From positions 1-26,824 of IMG/VR virus record IMGVR_UViG_2671180673_000010: DNA of 26,824 nucleotides; one strand, written 5' to 3'. How positions within the stretch are numbered: the stretch's first letter is position 1; each line of letters starts with the position of its first letter. The notes under the pieces were generated by a model. The model was not told the origin of the DNA, ran no database searches, and saw only the letters and a list, made by a program, of their open reading frames with translations. This DNA comes from a virus (Duplodnaviria > Heunggongvirae > Uroviricota > Caudoviricetes). The translations under genes and the position numbers were made by a program. Below, piece after piece: positions 142 to 25,511 of this stretch.

Positions 142-321
142 CGCTTATGGGAGCAAATCCCCGCCTCATTAGAGGTCAACGTAGCTTAGAAACCATCAAA
201 TTCATCATACATTTTTTTCATATCAACCCCCTCATAGAAATCATAACCACGTTTTGTGGTTTTTGTGACGTATAAACTACATCAAAGGCAAGCCACGGTC
301 AAATATATAGGCATGCTTACC

Positions 322-420
322 TGCACAAAAGTGCACAAATTTGCACAATTTTTTTGAACGACTTTTTACCCTTCCGGCCCGCATGGCGGCTGGATCCGTC
401 AAGGATCCGTGCGTGCACAA
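322..420. repeat. Phased short direct repeats: TGCACAA at 322, 332, 342 (10-bp spacing) and 414; GGATCCGT at 392 and 403
   Basis: Read directly from sequence; helical-turn spacing within a long non-coding stretch suggests a protein-binding array. Confidence 0.5.
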
Positions 421-720
421 AAAAACGCGCTTTTTCTGCGCGCAGGTGACGGGGGAACAGCCCGCGTTTCAGGGGGTAAATAGCATTCCCTGAACGATGT
501 CGCAGAGACACAACAGAATGGCCATATTTCTCACGCTGAGCATGAAAAAGGCGTGAGGGCTTTTGATTTGATGGGGTGAAAGGTAAGGCCGTCAAAATCG
601 CACTGAGGCAGCGAGAACATGCAGTCAACGCGGTGGAATTGCGTAAGAGTCTGACCGTCGATGGTGGCGATAAACTGGAAGGCGTCGTGAAATTATCTGA
701 TTGATACAGGAGCTGGAGAG

Positions 721-747: not shown

Positions 748-847
748 CGAAGCAGCAGACAAGCGAAGCGCGTCAGCGATACGGCACCTTGCCGACCATA
801 CTTCATAAGTGCAAAATACGAGCAAAGAAATCAATGGAGGCTGTCTT

Positions 848-1372
848 ATGGTCATTAATTACAAGCAGTTAAGAGAAAAACGGGAGCAGGTAAAGGAGAG
901 CTTTCGCCGCAATGAAGATCTGACCCCGCTTGTACGCCTTGCCCAGGGCATTGTTGATGCTTATGAAATCTCGCTGGAGCTGCCATCACAGACCTGGACA
1001 GATAGCGACGGTAATCGCCAGCATTACGTTTCATGCGGACTGGAAGCAGCCGAAGGATTTCGCAGAATGCCTTTATCCCAGATCCCTGCCGCTACCCCCA
1101 AAGCACGGGGCAGCAATGATGAGCGAAAACTGACTTTTAGTATTGAAACGGTGGTTGACGACACACCTGGCGAAGTCGCGTTCGTGCACACTCCTGTTTC
1201 GATCGCAATGTATAACGATGAAATACAGGTTCGCGTTAATAATAATATCGTGCCACTTAAAGAAGGTAATTCACCCTACACCACCGTTTGTGAAGCCATT
1301 CAATATTACGTTCTCTCTGAAATTGATAATCTCAAGCCTGACGGCACCCAGAAAATGGTTCAACTCTGGTAA
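848..1372 (+). CDS. Hypothetical protein, 174 aa (ORF track gives 809..1372; ATG at 848 preferred because GGAGG lies 7 nt upstream)
   Basis: Long ORF with good SD, followed by hairpin terminator; AT-richer than flanking phage genes; no motif I recognise; convergent with portal gene Q. Confidence 0.6.
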   Translation: MVINYKQLREKREQVKESFRRNEDLTPLVRLAQGIVDAYEISLELPSQTWTDSDGNRQHYVSCGLEAAEGFRRMPLSQIPAATPKARGSNDERKLTFSIETVVDDTPGEVAFVHTPVSIAMYNDEIQVRVNNNIVPLKEGNSPYTTVCEAIQYYVLSEIDNLKPDGTQKMVQLW

Positions 1373-9000: not shown

Positions 9001-9142
9001 CCCACCCACATGGGGAAACCTCGGAATATGGGGCGACCGCCTTCTGGATGCACTGGAAACCTGTAACGCGGATAAACGGGCCATTGCTGAACTGGATAAG
9101 AGAATAGCCGAACTGACACACCAGACGGGAGTAACACAATGA
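8861..9142 (+). CDS. Outer-membrane lipoprotein spanin (Rz1 / LysC-like), overlapping the Rz gene in another frame
   Basis: Lipobox LLTGC 15 aa after the Met, Pro-rich stretch PVTPPPFPDPPTW; starts inside Rz and extends beyond it as in P2 lysB/lysC. Confidence 0.6.
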   Translation: MNAPTLCLTLVLLTGCAGTQNAPGPAPSVRLIPQTLTMPVTPPPFPDPPTWGNLGIWGDRLLDALETCNADKRAIAELDKRIAELTHQTGVTQ

Positions 9143-11016
9143 CCAGTAAGAACTTTGCACTGATTACAGCCATGACACAGGCTGAACTGACTCAAAAGGT
9201 GAATGAACATCTTGCGAAAGGGTGGCATCTTCAGGGGGAGACGCGGGTTGCCTACGAACCCGGCACCCCGTGGTATCTAATGCAGGCAATGGTGGCCGAT
9301 GGCACTACAGACATCTCACCTGATTCCCCCCAGCACGGCAGCGTGCCGGAGTGGTATTACGTGGTGGTACTTGCTGGTCAATCCAATGCCATGTCATATG
9401 GTGAGGGAATGCCGCTGCCGGATTCTTACGATGCGCCCCACCCACGCATTAAGCAACTGGCCCGTCGCAACACAGTGACTCCCGGTGGTAAAGCATGCGC
9501 ATTTAACGACATCATTCCGGCAGACCACTGCCTGCATGATGTTCAGGATATGAGCGCACTGAATCACCCGAATGCAGACCTGAGCAAAGGGCAGTATGGC
9601 TGTGTCGGACAGGGCTTGCATATTGCCAAACGCCTGTTGCCTTACATTCCACAGAATGCCGGGATTTTACTGGTTCCATGCTGTCGTGGTGGTTCGGCAT
9701 TCACCCAGGGCGCGGAGGGGACATTCAGCGAGTCCACAGGAGCCAGTCAGGATTCGGCTCGCTGGGGTGTGGGTAAACCTTTATATCAGGACCTGATTTT
9801 GCGCACGAAGGCCGCATTGCAGAAAAACCCAAAAAACATGCTGCTGGCCGTATGCTGGATGCAGGGCGAATTTGACATGAGCGCCGCTACGTACTCACAG
9901 CAACCTCCGCTGTTTACGGCCATGCTGAAACAGTTTCGTGCGGACATTACCGAGTTTAACACGCAGTGTCATGGAGGCAGAGCGGCAAGTGTGCCATGGA
10001 TTTGTGGTGACACGACGTATTACTGGAAAAACACCTACGGCACGCAGTACGACACCATTTACGGGGCGTACAAAAACAGGGAGAGCGACAACGTTTTCTT
10101 TGTGCCGTTCCTGACCGATGGTAGTGGCAACAATACCTCCACCAACGCACCAACGGAAGATCCGGATGCTGCAAGTGAGGGATATTACGGTTCGGCATCC
10201 CGAACGAACAAAAACTGGGTATCATCAAATCGCCAGACGCATTTCAGCTCATGGGCGCGTCGTGGCATTATTCCCGATCGTATGGCAACCGCTATTCTGA
10301 ACGTAGCCGGTCGCACCTTAGCCTTCATCAGTGGTAAGGCACCGGAAATCAAACCCTCGCCCGGCGGCGACACGCCATCGGGGCCGTCTGAAGATGCATC
10401 CGTACGCACAATCTCCCTGTTGCCGACAGCCGGAGATGCTGCTGCGCAGGGCTGGAGCATTAAGAATGGCGGAATTCAGTTGTCAGAAGGTGTATTTAAG
10501 ATCACCAAGCAGAGCAATAAAGCCTGGTCCCTGACGCGCCCGGTGGATGACGCAGTCTCCCTGCTGACACGGGGTGGCAGACTGAGCTGTAAGTTTCGAC
10601 TGTCAGGCGCACTGACCAACAAACAGTTCGGTCTGGGAATTTATCTGTATACCGATGTAGCGTTACCTGACGTCGTGGCGATGACCGGGACTGGTAACCC
10701 GTTCCTGATGTCGTTCTTCACCCAGACCACAGACGGCAAACTGAATCTGATGCATCACAAGAAAGCAGGAAACACAAAGTTGGGCGAGTTCGGGAATTAC
10801 AGTAACGACTGGCAGACGCTGGAGCTGGTGTTCACCGCCGGCAGTGCCACGGTTACTCCGAAACTGAATGGAGTGGCTGGCCCGGCATTCCAGGTCATAA
10901 AAGACAGTCTGACACTGGGGCTGAATGCGCTGACGTTAACTGATATCACTAAAAATGCCGCGTACGGCGTCGATATCGGCAGCCTGGTGCTGGAAATCAA
11001 TAATCCCGCAGCATAA
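9139..11016 (+). CDS. NanS-p-like sialate O-acetylesterase (SASA/SGNH-type) with small N-terminal domain and roughly 250-aa C-terminal domain
   Basis: VLAGQSNAMSYGEG (GQSN catalytic-Ser motif) and CWMQGEFD; N-terminal roughly 50 aa resembles DUF1737; start overlaps Rz1 stop (ATGA). Confidence 0.6.
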   Translation: MTSKNFALITAMTQAELTQKVNEHLAKGWHLQGETRVAYEPGTPWYLMQAMVADGTTDISPDSPQHGSVPEWYYVVVLAGQSNAMSYGEGMPLPDSYDAPHPRIKQLARRNTVTPGGKACAFNDIIPADHCLHDVQDMSALNHPNADLSKGQYGCVGQGLHIAKRLLPYIPQNAGILLVPCCRGGSAFTQGAEGTFSESTGASQDSARWGVGKPLYQDLILRTKAALQKNPKNMLLAVCWMQGEFDMSAATYSQQPPLFTAMLKQFRADITEFNTQCHGGRAASVPWICGDTTYYWKNTYGTQYDTIYGAYKNRESDNVFFVPFLTDGSGNNTSTNAPTEDPDAASEGYYGSASRTNKNWVSSNRQTHFSSWARRGIIPDRMATAILNVAGRTLAFISGKAPEIKPSPGGDTPSGPSEDASVRTISLLPTAGDAAAQGWSIKNGGIQLSEGVFKITKQSNKAWSLTRPVDDAVSLLTRGGRLSCKFRLSGALTNKQFGLGIYLYTDVALPDVVAMTGTGNPFLMSFFTQTTDGKLNLMHHKKAGNTKLGEFGNYSNDWQTLELVFTAGSATVTPKLNGVAGPAFQVIKDSLTLGLNALTLTDITKNAAYGVDIGSLVLEINNPAA

Positions 11017-24894: not shown

Positions 24895-25085
24895 CAGGCA
24901 GAATTGCCGGAGTAACAAAAAAGCGATAGATTACGTGCGGGTGCCTTTCGGCTGATGGTCGGAGGGAATACCCGAAGGCCAGATGTGGAAAGGCCCCGAG
25001 TCAACTTTAACGTTAACCCGAGGCCCTAACCATCTACCCTCAGCAAGTGATAGGTTAGCGCCTCCCCGAAAAAGGAGCAAGCGCT

Positions 25086-25226
25086 ATGTCGCAAAAATCG
25101 CTTACGGCCATCACATTCTGCGTGACGGCAATCCTCATCATCTGGATGCTGCACGGTTCGCTGTGTGAAATACGGATGAGTTTCTGGGGAGCGGAGTTTG
25201 CGGCGTTCTTACAGTGTAAGCAGTAA
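25086..25226 (+). CDS. Hok/Gef-family type I toxin (46 aa), not in the ORF track
   Basis: MSQKSLTAITFCVTAILIIWMLHGSLCEIRMSFWGAEFAAFLQCKQ: N-terminal TM segment, SLCEIR motif identical to Hok, conserved Cys positions; AGGAG SD 7 nt upstream. Confidence 0.7.
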   Translation: MSQKSLTAITFCVTAILIIWMLHGSLCEIRMSFWGAEFAAFLQCKQ

Positions 25227-25320
25227 GGAAACCGCGACGGGGAAGGCAACTTCCCCGTCAATCGGTTGCCAGGGTAAAGGTCGAAAAGGCACCCTATTTC
25301 CAGTTGACGTGAACAACAAG

Positions 25321-25352
25321 CCCGCAGCGTAAAAACTGCGGGTTTTCTTTTT
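25321..25352 (+). terminator. Intrinsic terminator downstream of the hok-like ORF
   Basis: Stem cccgcag / ctgcggg with 8-nt loop, followed by ttttcttttt. Confidence 0.6.
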
Positions 25353-25383
25353 GGTTCCCTCACTCATGAGGACACCAAAAAAC

Positions 25384-25415
25384 AAAGCCCACAGCATAGA
25401 AGCTGTGGGCTTTTT
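25384..25415. terminator. Bidirectional intrinsic terminator (12-bp perfect stem)
   Basis: aaagcccacagc-atagaa-gctgtgggcttt with A6 upstream and T5 downstream. Confidence 0.6.
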
Positions 25416-25490
25416 GCATTCAAAGATGGACGTTATATGGACACTTAAAAATAAAATCCATTTATTTTCAAATGATTAAACCTCTACTTA

Positions 25491-25511
25491 AAGCGCCCGC
25501 AGGCGCTTTTT
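25491..25511 (-). terminator. serS terminator (also usable on the plus strand)
   Basis: Stem aagcgcc / ggcgctt, loop cgca, T5 on plus strand; lies about 25 nt downstream of the serS stop. Confidence 0.55.

Follow-up and report, generated by a model that had tools for sequence, protein, structure and literature searches.

A hok/sok-family toxin–antitoxin module between ogr and attR of a P88-like prophage, with a possibly Mok-independent control of the toxin mRNA

hok loci are abundant in Enterobacteriaceae, and a 2025–26 catalogue of Hok peptides describes them as enriched in prophages (Escalera-Maurer et al., bioRxiv 10.1101/2025.08.07.668861). In the hok/mok/sok system of plasmid R1 (parB), translation of hok requires translation of mok (PMC4147584), and the truncated hok mRNA ends in a terminal stem-loop (PMC9841398). 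A second system, hokW-sokW of Sakai prophage 5 (Sp5), has been proven experimentally to be a type I toxin–antitoxin (TA) system that depends on RNase III and Hfq (PMC8621323). Here, we examined a locus of this kind at one end of a 26,824-nucleotide stretch of Caudoviricetes DNA (IMG/VR record IMGVR_UViG_2671180673_000010; hereafter, the window). As a find, the locus is ordinary: both the module and this member of it are already known, being annotated in hundreds of genomes and included in the recent Hok catalogue.

The original prediction placed a 46-codon ORF of the Hok/Gef family, with a strong Shine–Dalgarno (SD) sequence, at positions 25086–25226 of the plus strand. The ORF is present and encodes 46 amino acids followed by a stop codon (MSQKSLTAITFCVTAILIIWMLHGSLCEIRMSFWGAEFAAFLQCKQ), and an AAGGAG SD can be read from the sequence at 25072–25077 (plus strand), 8 nt upstream of the ATG. 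In a profile search, the peptide matched Pfam HOK_GEF (PF01848) with 29.9 bits (E = 4.1e-7; gathering cut-off, 22) over residues 7–44, corresponding to positions 5–42 of the 42-position profile, and it also matched PHROG 251 with 80.6 bits; PADLOC had no model for it. The ORF had been described as missed by the ORF track, which is correct for the track supplied with the sequence but not for RefSeq, in which the CDS is annotated as WP_000078916.1 (“Hok/Gef family protein”). When matched by eye, residues M1, C12, T14, L26, C27, E28, and E37 fit the logo positions that over 80% of 1,264 Hok peptides share (M1, C16, T18, L30, C31, E32, and E41). Residues 6–22 (LTAITFCVTAILIIWML) appear by eye to be hydrophobic and without charge, and the second cysteine is at position 44. 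In the Hok catalogue, an identical peptide is entry 72_1621, which was cloned under an arabinose promoter; 42 of the 45 constructs were toxic on over-expression, and the three non-toxic ones were other sequences (bioRxiv 10.1101/2025.08.07.668861). The toxicity of 72_1621 on over-expression is, to that extent, a result from the literature.

The locus had also been predicted to lie at the end of a prophage beside serS, possibly as prophage cargo, and comparison with other genomes bears out both points. The gpD (PF05954) and Ogr/Delta (PF04606) domains are encoded directly upstream of it, and identity to the K-12 chromosome begins at approximately position 25488. The att core (AAAGCGCCCGCAGGCGCTTT, 25490–25509) is a 20-bp repeat that coincides with the serS terminator hairpin and forms the right prophage boundary (attR), and an identical 20-mer adjoins the integrase at attL in NZ_CP015085.1; the position of this repeat places the hok locus approximately 140 bp inside the prophage. 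Between the hok unit and attR, at 25384–25415, there is a second, bidirectional terminator-like hairpin, called by the terminator scan on the minus strand (25413–25384) and carrying T-runs on both sides; this stretch is missing from K-12 and belongs to the prophage DNA. The hok locus is 91–94% identical in phages P88, P884B11, 500465-2, and Chuche, and the order gpD-ogr-hok recurs both in free phage genomes (P88 and Chuche) and at other integration sites. The locus is thus cargo of a P88-like prophage (P2 family, Peduoviridae) inserted in the serS terminator, in which it lies between ogr and attR. Of 5,426 complete E. coli genomes, 1,575 contain this unit or a relative that is at least approximately 80% identical to it in DNA. 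An alignment-based search for related loci returned six, three of which were in non-enterobacterial assemblies that are probably contaminated.

To describe the RNA anatomy, we counted covariation over 20 diverged relatives, promoter elements over 21 members, and ORFs over 22 units of the family. A hok promoter is predicted on the plus strand at 24904–24932, where a −35 TTGCCG (24904–24909) and a −10 TAGATT (24927–24932) can be read from the sequence with a 17-nt spacer, and transcription would begin at approximately 24939. Eighteen of the 21 members have TAGAAT or TAGATT as the −10, at a constant distance from the sequence GGGTGCC, and hokW carries the same hok −10 box. A generic sigma-70 scan called neither this promoter, which has 8 of 12 consensus matches, nor the antisense promoter described below, so that what carries the promoter assignments on both strands is conservation within the family together with homology. 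At the other end of the unit, the intrinsic terminator predicted at 25321–25352 was called by the terminator scan (plus strand; stem CCCGCAG/CTGCGGG, followed by TTTTCTTTTT), and its helix is conserved with four compensatory pairs.

The predicted mRNA appears to fold back on itself. Its 5′ end carries a tac-like box (GGGTGCCTTT, 24939–24948, plus strand; helix extension, 24949–24953), to which an fbi-like element near the 3′ end is complementary (AAAGGCACCC, 25285–25294, plus strand; extension GGTCG, 25279–25283). Segments 24939–24953 and 25279–25294 pair in both the minimum free energy (MFE) fold and the RNAalifold consensus, and the MFE fold that closes the two mRNA ends has a z-score of −6.35. 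The tac/fbi helix is paired in 98.2% of cells, compared with 28–46% in slid controls, and has four compensatory pairs; its pairing probability is 0.96 in the window and averages 0.92 over 15 family members. Within the fold, a hairpin at 25056–25086 (plus strand) sequesters the SD: the anti-SD (GCGCCTCC, 25058–25065) is engaged with the SD bases GGAG (25074–25077) and with GCGC (25081–25084) before the ATG. This helix is 100% paired in the 20 sequences, and its changes are exclusively wobble-compatible. Downstream of the stop codon, a conserved stem-loop of 10 bp with a GCAA loop lies at 25236–25259 (plus strand); nine of its pairs were evaluated in the 20 sequences and were 98.9% paired, five of them with compensatory changes. 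The original prediction of a perfect hairpin here was borne out, at coordinates approximately 3 nt away from those first given (25240–25261), but its designation as fbi-like was not: the stem-loop is self-contained and has its own compensatory changes, and the complement of the mRNA 5′ end is at 25285–25294, so we rejected it as fbi. By analogy with the truncated R1 mRNA, it is probably the hairpin that protects the 3′ end of the processed mRNA. A further 3′ segment, 25261–25276 (plus strand), pairs in the full-length MFE fold with 25035–25051, the target of the 5′ tail of the putative antisense RNA; this pairing would mask the antisense recognition site, and the corresponding RNAalifold columns (108–115 and 351–358) show changes on both sides.

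Taken together, the six named helices are 98.6% paired with 15 compensatory pairs, although these counts overstate the independent support because much of the covariation goes back to a few events between an E. coli-type and a Salmonella-type group. Comparison of the 20 diverged relatives supports a hok-type mRNA with tac, fbi, an SD hairpin, a 3′-UTR hairpin, and a terminator, along with an antisense promoter. The Rfam model RF01794 (sok/hok leader) aligned over its full length to 24939–25099 with 42.8 bits (E = 9.1e-8), a score that does not reach its gathering score of 59. The other Rfam hits in the region, to miRNA, leader, and sRNA models (E values of 0.02–1), were rejected as chance matches to terminator hairpins.

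These observations bear on whether the locus might be a decaying, non-functional relic whose gene and motifs have been kept by recent descent only. Decay of this kind is familiar: none of the chromosomal hok loci in K-12 is active, hokA being interrupted by IS150, and the present family includes decayed copies, two without the promoter and tac box (L013 and L014) and one without the −10 (L011). In the window, however, the promoter, tac, fbi, SD hairpin, ORF, and terminator are all intact. Moreover, compensatory changes keep the helices across sequences that are just 65–75% identical, which requires selection, the unit is carried by the isolated and viable phages P88 and Chuche, and the Hok catalogue reports the identical peptide to be toxic. 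We therefore regard the relic reading as highly improbable.

A candidate promoter for a Sok-like antisense RNA lies on the minus strand at 25052–25080, with a −35 TTGCTC (25080–25075) that overlaps the hok SD, a 17-nt spacer, and a −10 TAACCT (25057–25052). All 21 members have TAACCT or TATCCT as the −10, 20 of them keep the 17-nt spacer, and the −35 is TTGCTC, TTTACT, or TTGACT. Because these boxes overlap the alternative helix described below and the hok SD, their conservation cannot be ascribed to promoter function alone. In an alignment with hokW, this −10 falls on the AGGTTAG box and is thereby homologous to the experimentally defined sokW −10. Primer YO-421 in Table 2 of the hokW-sokW study alters this box (PMC8621323) and was presumably used to build the sokW promoter-less mutant of Fig. 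1E in that paper. From the position of the conserved antisense promoter, the Sok-like RNA is predicted to be approximately 60 nt long and to span 24985–25044 on the minus strand, both ends being estimates. It would consist of a variable single-stranded 5′ tail (approximately 25044–25027), a long hairpin antisense to 24992–25025, and a short U-containing tail, and its predicted fold has a free energy of −33.7 kcal/mol (z = −6.1). The U-tract after the antisense hairpin is poor in the window, which makes the 3′ end uncertain, and is better in relatives (UUUCGCUUUUCU).

Removal of the 3′ end would leave the tac-like box free to pair elsewhere, and its alternative partner is predicted to be a ucb-like box (GAAAGGCCCC, 24988–24997, plus strand), part of which forms the 5′ arm of the target hairpin 24992–25025. 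The tac/ucb helix appears in the fold of the truncated mRNA and is 97% paired across the 20 sequences with two compensatory pairs; there is also covariation between the same 5′ columns and the fbi side. A GAGGC box and the bases that follow it (25020–25034, plus strand) correspond by homology to the region around the mok SD in hokW and R1, and no start codon follows. In the truncated mRNA, this region is predicted to pair with the anti-SD region at 25049–25064, the core of the helix (25020–25024 with 25060–25064) being 100% paired, and a position of the helix in two relatives (L017 and L023b) covaries with both the full-length partner and the anti-SD. The two alternative helices are 97% and 86% paired, with some positions that covary with both partners. 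In a three-state ensemble model of the window, the pairing probability of the anti-SD with the SD was 0.91 in the full-length mRNA, 0.03 in the truncated mRNA, and 0.95 when the Sok target was blocked. The absolute exposure of the SD in this model climbed just from 0.02 to 0.11 on truncation, and most Salmonella copies showed no in silico switch at the truncation point chosen. Covariation suggests a switch that works straight on the hok SD, but since ensemble folding backs the opening of the SD only partly, we treat this step as inferred.

In R1, the link between the leader and toxin synthesis is the Mok reading frame, and the original prediction had assigned this role to an ORF in the +2 frame at 24983–25168 (plus strand). 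The ORF does exist and overlaps the start of hok. Its ATG follows GAAGG, its reading frame covers both the SD hairpin and the start of hok, and it begins at the point where the Sok-like RNA is predicted to have its 3′ end. On this basis, the locus might be a canonical hok/mok/sok system: the ORF would be a genuine Mok whose translation unfolds the SD hairpin, and Sok would exert its effect by blocking this frame. The assignment as Mok nevertheless fails to extend to the family, given that the ORF is found in only 2 of the 22 units, namely the window and an E. albertii copy, and is missing from the other 20. In P2-like phage copies that are 88–93% identical to the window (Chuche, P88, L007, and L008), the other elements are intact, and the frame lacks a start codon and is closed by a stop 43 nt upstream of the hok ATG. 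The ATG is missing altogether from the Salmonella and Klebsiella copies, the segment that holds the mok SD and ATG in hokW is missing from the leader when the two are aligned, and the 61-amino-acid product had no match in Pfam, NCBIfam, or PHROG. We accordingly consider the canonical reading improbable and the ORF probably fortuitous.

A search in three frames over the 22 units, including in-frame N-terminal extensions of hok, found no conserved Mok-type ORF, although it recovered the Mok ORF of hokW, which served as the positive control. Frame 0 is shut by a nearby in-frame stop in every unit: the TAG of GGTTAG, 30 nt upstream, in 14 units, and a TAA nearer to the ATG in the other 8. A leader peptide initiated at the ATG at 24983 was considered and rejected, as its end differs from member to member among the E. 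coli-type copies and it is absent from the Salmonella-type copies. As ORF 24983–25168 is not conserved, the 46-amino-acid Hok subfamily has no Mok equivalent in it, and a Mok-type ORF seems not to be a feature of the subfamily. The copy in the window does carry the ORF, which could function like Mok, and this copy may therefore still depend on it.

From these lines of evidence, we infer the transcripts and their ends, the processing, and the direction of the switch as follows. A hok mRNA of approximately 414 nt (24939 to approximately 25352) would fold back with its 5′ tac on its 3′ fbi; in this form, the local hairpin would hide the hok SD and the 3′-UTR segment would cover the antisense target, and the full-length mRNA is expected to be stable, to remain untranslated, and not to be recognised by the antitoxin. 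The minus-strand promoter (−10 at 25057–25052) would produce the Sok-like RNA of approximately 60 nt, complementary to the leader at approximately 24985–25044. The R1 hok system suggests by analogy how the mRNA would be activated: slow trimming of the 3′ end as far as the hairpin at 25236–25259 would take off fbi, after which tac would pair with 24988–24997 and free the GAGGC box. The freed box may then capture the anti-SD and open the hok SD, and ribosomes could then start on hok directly, with no need for a Mok reading frame. As long as the Sok-like RNA is present, it would bind the unmasked leader, hold the anti-SD on the SD, and probably trigger cleavage by RNase III. Transcription of the element might stop because the prophage is lost or because an infecting phage shuts off the host; the antisense RNA, being labile, would then disappear, leaving Hok to depolarise the inner membrane.

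We consider it likely that the locus is a hok/sok-family type I TA module of the 46-amino-acid subfamily “cluster 72” that operates along these lines. The assignment to hok/sok made in the original prediction is backed by the Pfam profile and by the RefSeq and PHROG annotation, as well as by the covarying fold-back mRNA, the sokW-like antisense −10, and the published toxicity of the identical peptide. More tentatively, with somewhat less than an even chance of being right, we propose that cluster 72 is a Mok-independent variant of hok/sok. In this variant, the mok-SD-like GAGGC box (25020–25024) would be re-used as an anti-anti-SD, the tac/ucb switch after 3′ trimming would uncover the hok SD directly, and the Sok-like RNA would not block a leader ORF but would prevent this capture and lead to RNase III cleavage. 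Cross-talk between co-resident copies would be avoided through the hyper-variable 5′ tail of the antisense RNA.

The same module could also serve mainly as an accessory of phage lysis or release, with Hok made on prophage induction speeding lysis, instead of acting in addiction or exclusion; this differs from the preferred reading in the biological role only. The hokW-sokW system of Sp5, for which such a role has been shown, provides a precedent, and the place of the locus right after the late activator gene ogr would permit read-through by late transcription. hokW, however, belongs to another Hok cluster and has a Mok ORF. The present subfamily is also represented on plasmid- or ICE-like contigs and at places outside prophages, and there are tandem arrays of copies with divergent antisense tails, even within one prophage, which resemble addiction or exclusion modules more. 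We therefore regard a principal role in lysis as unlikely, and addiction or exclusion would be the preferred role.

The value of the analysis is mainly one of annotation, in that the prophage boundary is fixed, the 450 bp between ogr and attR are explained, and a predicted antisense gene that had been left unannotated is placed. The point of broader interest is that a large and well-conserved Hok subfamily apparently lacks a Mok frame, which contrasts with the textbook claim that hok translation needs mok translation. If Mok independence were true, the regulation of hok/sok would be more plastic than the R1 paradigm implies, and the subfamily would be a simple natural model for an RNA switch that acts on the ribosome-binding site of a toxin.

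Among described systems, the closest by peptide is the catalogued cluster 72 (entries 72_1621 and 72_1589), of which 72_1621 is identical to the peptide of the window. In the preprint, the cluster is one of high abundance and the catalogue covers the coding sequence, with Mok, Sok, and mRNA structure outside the authors’ analysis (bioRxiv 10.1101/2025.08.07.668861); the ogr-attR position and the RNA anatomy come from the present analysis. Leader-ORF-independent control is known from tisB/istR-1 and zorO/orzO, which have long 5′ UTRs, an antisense RNA whose target lies well upstream of the toxin ribosome-binding site, and a toxin mRNA that needs processing for translation (PMC4147584, PMC5397157). 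The likeness to them is one of analogy only, as their sequences are unrelated and they use 5′ processing or a ribosome standby site, whereas hok-like 3′ processing is proposed here.

Within the hok family, HokA of the E. coli hokA/mokA/sokA system (the K-12 copy of which is IS150-disrupted) is the best NCBIfam model match to the peptide. As in HokA, both cysteines are hard-coded, so that TadA editing is not needed, and the C-terminal motif is similar (EFAAFLxC). The score against NF007290 is 34 bits, well below the equivalog cut-off of 89, so the peptide is not a HokA orthologue; furthermore, hokA has an annotated mokA extension, unlike the present locus. hokW-sokW (Sakai prophage 5/VT2-Sakai; Takada et al. 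2021, PMC8621323) is likewise prophage-borne, and it shares the hok −10 (TAGAAT), the GCGGGTGC start, and the antisense −10 TAACCT at the homologous position. It differs in belonging to another cluster, in its 51-amino-acid peptide (MKQQKAM...), and in an in-frame Mok-type ORF of 70 codons, and it scores 113.5 bits against RF01794, on the sense strand of the leader, compared with 42.8 bits for the present locus. Orthology between the two, which hits in Stx phages had suggested, was rejected after a search with the primer sequences put hokW at another locus: in VT2-Sakai, hokW is at approximately 57.8 kb, and the relative of the present locus is a separate copy at 44.5–44.9 kb, beside lom.

The R1 hok/mok/sok system is plasmid-borne and its peptide has 52 amino acids, whereas the present locus is prophage-borne, encodes 46 amino acids, scores below the gathering threshold of RF01794, and lacks a conserved Mok frame, and its fbi precedes a separate terminator hairpin by approximately 30 nt. 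The two share a Hok/Gef peptide, a long structured mRNA with tac/fbi fold-back, masking of the SD in the full-length form, and a terminal 3′ hairpin; an alternative partner for tac and a short antisense RNA whose promoter overlaps the hok SD region, both of them predicted in our case, would be further common features (PMC9841398, PMC4147584).

The ORF originally predicted to encode a Hok/Gef peptide (46 codons, positions 25086–25226, plus strand, MSQKSLTAITFCVTAILIIWMLHGSLCEIRMSFWGAEFAAFLQCKQ), read from the sequence with a Shine–Dalgarno (SD) motif, AAGGAG, 8 nt 5′ of its ATG, is present, and the locus was rightly assigned to the hok/sok type. The peptide passed the Pfam HOK_GEF profile (29.9 bits; cut-off, 22), and its RefSeq entry is WP_000078916.1, “Hok/Gef family protein.” It also matched PHROG 251 (80.6 bits), a group labeled “MokW-like host killing,” yet composed of Hok peptides. 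The closest NCBIfam model was HokA, but the score of 34 bits, far under the cut-off of 89, ruled out a HokA orthologue. The 67 homologues, nearly all of 46 aa, were from E. coli, Shigella, Salmonella, and Klebsiella oxytoca. In a recent Hok catalogue (bioRxiv 10.1101/2025.08.07.668861), the identical peptide is entry 72_1621 and the Stx-phage variant is 72_1589; the 45 constructs tested there included both, 42 proved toxic, and neither of these two was among the three that did not. The catalogue paper states that Mok, Sok, and the mRNA lay outside its analysis. The hok locus has been annotated and catalogued before, and its peptide has been tested. Within the coding region, a 29-nt stretch (25191–25219, GCGGAGTTTGCGGCGTTCTTACAGTGTAA) is near-invariant in nucleotides in a family otherwise 65–75% identical, and part of it (25194–25204) pairs with the start-codon region (25088–25098); therefore, it appears to be under a double constraint, from both peptide and RNA.

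The hok unit (24895–25360) lies downstream of genes for a P2 gpD-type baseplate protein (PF05954) and an Ogr/Delta zinc-finger protein (PF04606), with minus-strand serS on its other side and identity to K-12 starting at about 25488. In a complete O25b:H4 genome with an identical locus, the prophage spans from int, adjoining dmsA, to the hok end, and a 20-bp direct repeat, the att core (AAAGCGCCCGCAGGCGCTTT, 25490–25509 in the window), is present at both junctions. The repeat corresponds to the terminator hairpin of serS, the insertion site of the phage, and its position places the hok unit approximately 140 bp inside the prophage. The T-run after the hairpin (serS, minus strand) changes from T7 in K-12 to T3 at attR. 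A bidirectional terminator-like hairpin on the prophage side (25384–25415) may stop serS read-through running antisense into hok. Among 5,426 complete E. coli genomes, 293 had a 636-bp stretch including the serS junction, and 1,575 had the hok unit by itself or related DNA of at least ~80% identity, with up to eight copies per genome. The DNA was 91–94% identical to the matching region of the P2-like phages P88, P884B11 (Xuanwuvirus), 500465-2, Chuche, and others. Salmonella prophages integrated elsewhere also have the gpD–ogr–hok order, sometimes with two or three tandem units (period, ~495 bp) directly 3′ of ogr (extracted regions L020, 1354–2285; L021, 1354–2290; L022 and L023, 358–1792).

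Outside the window, the prophage that harbors this hok unit includes genes for ParM-type plasmid segregation and for partition/stability (L028, 3314–4592; NZ_CP015085.1, 4775313–4776591), which are unusual in an integrated P2-like phage and hint at a plasmid-like or satellite-derived module. Within the window, a 625-aa ORF of the phage late region (9139–11016, plus strand) contains DUF1737, a SASA sialate O-acetylesterase domain, and DUF6645, and is presumably similar to NanS-p esterases from Stx prophages. At the left end, two ORFs next to the portal gene (317–628, minus strand; 809–1372, plus strand) had no Pfam or PADLOC match; we take this to be a site at which P2-like phages often have variable cargo. 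Copies of this enterobacterial hok (72–98% peptide identity) on contigs labeled as a Planococcaceae MAG, Vagococcus sp., and Xanthomonas pisi (L006, L007, and L010) are most likely contamination of those assemblies.

From 23 distinct hok units, 20 full mRNAs, 65–93% identical to the window, were aligned. The single-sequence fold of 24939–25352 closed the 5′ end onto 25279–25294 (z = −6.35), a long-range helix also found by RNAalifold in the alignment. In this fold-back, the 5′ tac box (24939–24948) pairs with its complement, the fbi element (25285–25294, plus strand): 98.2% of the cells were paired, compared with 28–46% when the partner was slid, compensatory changes occurred at four pairs, and the invariant core had only a few changes, which were wobble-compatible. 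Pairing was also conserved, on the plus strand, for a target hairpin (24992–25025), an SD-sequestering hairpin (25056–25086), a perfect 10-bp 3′-UTR hairpin (25236–25259), and the intrinsic terminator (25321–25352), which was called where it had been predicted. A fifth helix, which masks 25035–25051, is supported by the RNAalifold consensus. Counted jointly with both tac/fbi segments, the other four were 98.6% paired, with 15 compensatory pairs. The perfect hairpin had first been placed at 25240–25261, slightly off its true position, and read as fbi-like, a role that belongs instead to the more distal element. Decayed family copies were also observed: L013 and L014 (1331–1500) have no promoter or tac box, and in L011 (S. 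diarizonae, 1331–1500) the ORF remains, but the −10 and some of the leader are gone.

A generic promoter scan called no promoter for either hok or the antisense RNA. The predicted hok −10, TAGATT (24927–24932, plus strand; TTGCCG 17 nt upstream), is TAGAAT or TAGATT in 18 of 21 family members, at a constant distance 5′ of GGGTGCC. On the minus strand, the predicted antisense −10, TAACCT (25057–25052), is TAACCT or TATCCT in 21 of 21 members, the predicted −35, TTGCTC (25080–25075), is TTGCTC, TTTACT, or TTGACT, and the spacer is 17 nt in 20 of the 21. In hokW, the AGGTTAG box is aligned with this −10 and is altered by primer YO-421 (Takada et al., PMC8621323); we infer that this primer was behind their sokW promoter-less mutant. 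The predicted Sok-like RNA (~25044 to ~24985, minus strand) would have a single-stranded 5′ tail followed by a long hairpin (−33.7 kcal/mol, z = −6.1). No other segment of the entire hok unit varies as much as this tail, tandem copies included. In the Salmonella tandem units (L020–L023), the predicted tails differ between copies, as though under selection against cross-reaction. Rfam “sok” (RF01794) matched 24939–25099 on the plus strand (42.8 bits; gathering score, 59; E = 9e−8), as expected because it also matches the sense strand of the characterized hokW leader (113.5 bits); the leader in the window is a divergent relative. Such matches are read as the hok-leader/Sok overlap region and not as the strand of the antisense gene.

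When the 3′ end was removed (fold of 24939–25266), the tac box paired with 24988–24997, leaving GAGGC (25020–25024) free to pair with the anti-SD GCCUC (25060–25064). These alternative helices were 97% and 86% paired across the family, respectively, and some columns covaried with both mutually exclusive partners, a signature of a switch. Loss of the 3′ end would thus allow tac to pair with 24988–24997 and GAGGC to capture the anti-SD, so that a hok-type switch would act on the hok SD itself. The Sok-like RNA would keep this switch in its closed state and probably also induce cleavage by RNase III. In the window ensemble model, anti-SD:SD pairing was 0.91 at full length, 0.03 after truncation, and 0.95 after truncation with the Sok target blocked, but SD exposure rose only from 0.02 to 0.11 on truncation. 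Most Salmonella copies showed no switching in silico in the ensemble model.

In plasmid R1, hok translation needs mok translation (PMC4147584). We searched all three frames 5′ of the hok ATG in 22 units, with hokW as the control, in which an in-frame 70-codon Mok ORF was detected. In the 46-aa family, frame 0 was closed by a nearby stop in all 22 units (the TAG of GGTTAG, 30 nt 5′ of the ATG, in 14; a TAA nearer the ATG in eight), and the other two frames had no start conserved across the units. The ORF proposed as mok-like (24983–25168, plus strand) does exist and overlaps the hok start, but its ATG opens such an ORF only in the window and an E. albertii copy, which does not bear out a Mok role for the family; in Chuche, P88, L007, and L008 (88–93% identical), a stop lies 43 nt 5′ of the hok ATG, and an ATG at the equivalent position is lacking from the Salmonella and Klebsiella copies. 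Furthermore, the hokW segment with the mok SD and ATG is missing from the aligned leader of this subfamily (cluster 72 of the catalogue). With frame 0 closed, no start conserved, and this segment missing, a Mok-type ORF is not characteristic of the subfamily, although that of the window may be translated; cluster 72 raises the question of Mok-independent control.

Copies of hok approximately 83% identical to that of the window adjoin lom in Stx phages, where hokW-sokW is a separate locus ~13 kb away. VT2-Sakai, 933W, and others carry two unrelated hok loci, hokW-sokW (L026; AP000363.1, 57300–58200) and the 46-aa cluster-72 copy by lom (L003, 1501–1875; AP000363.1, 44532–44906), the latter without CDS annotation in several GenBank records. 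The hok locus may serve in prophage addiction, in excluding other phages, or, as for hokW-sokW, in assisting lysis.
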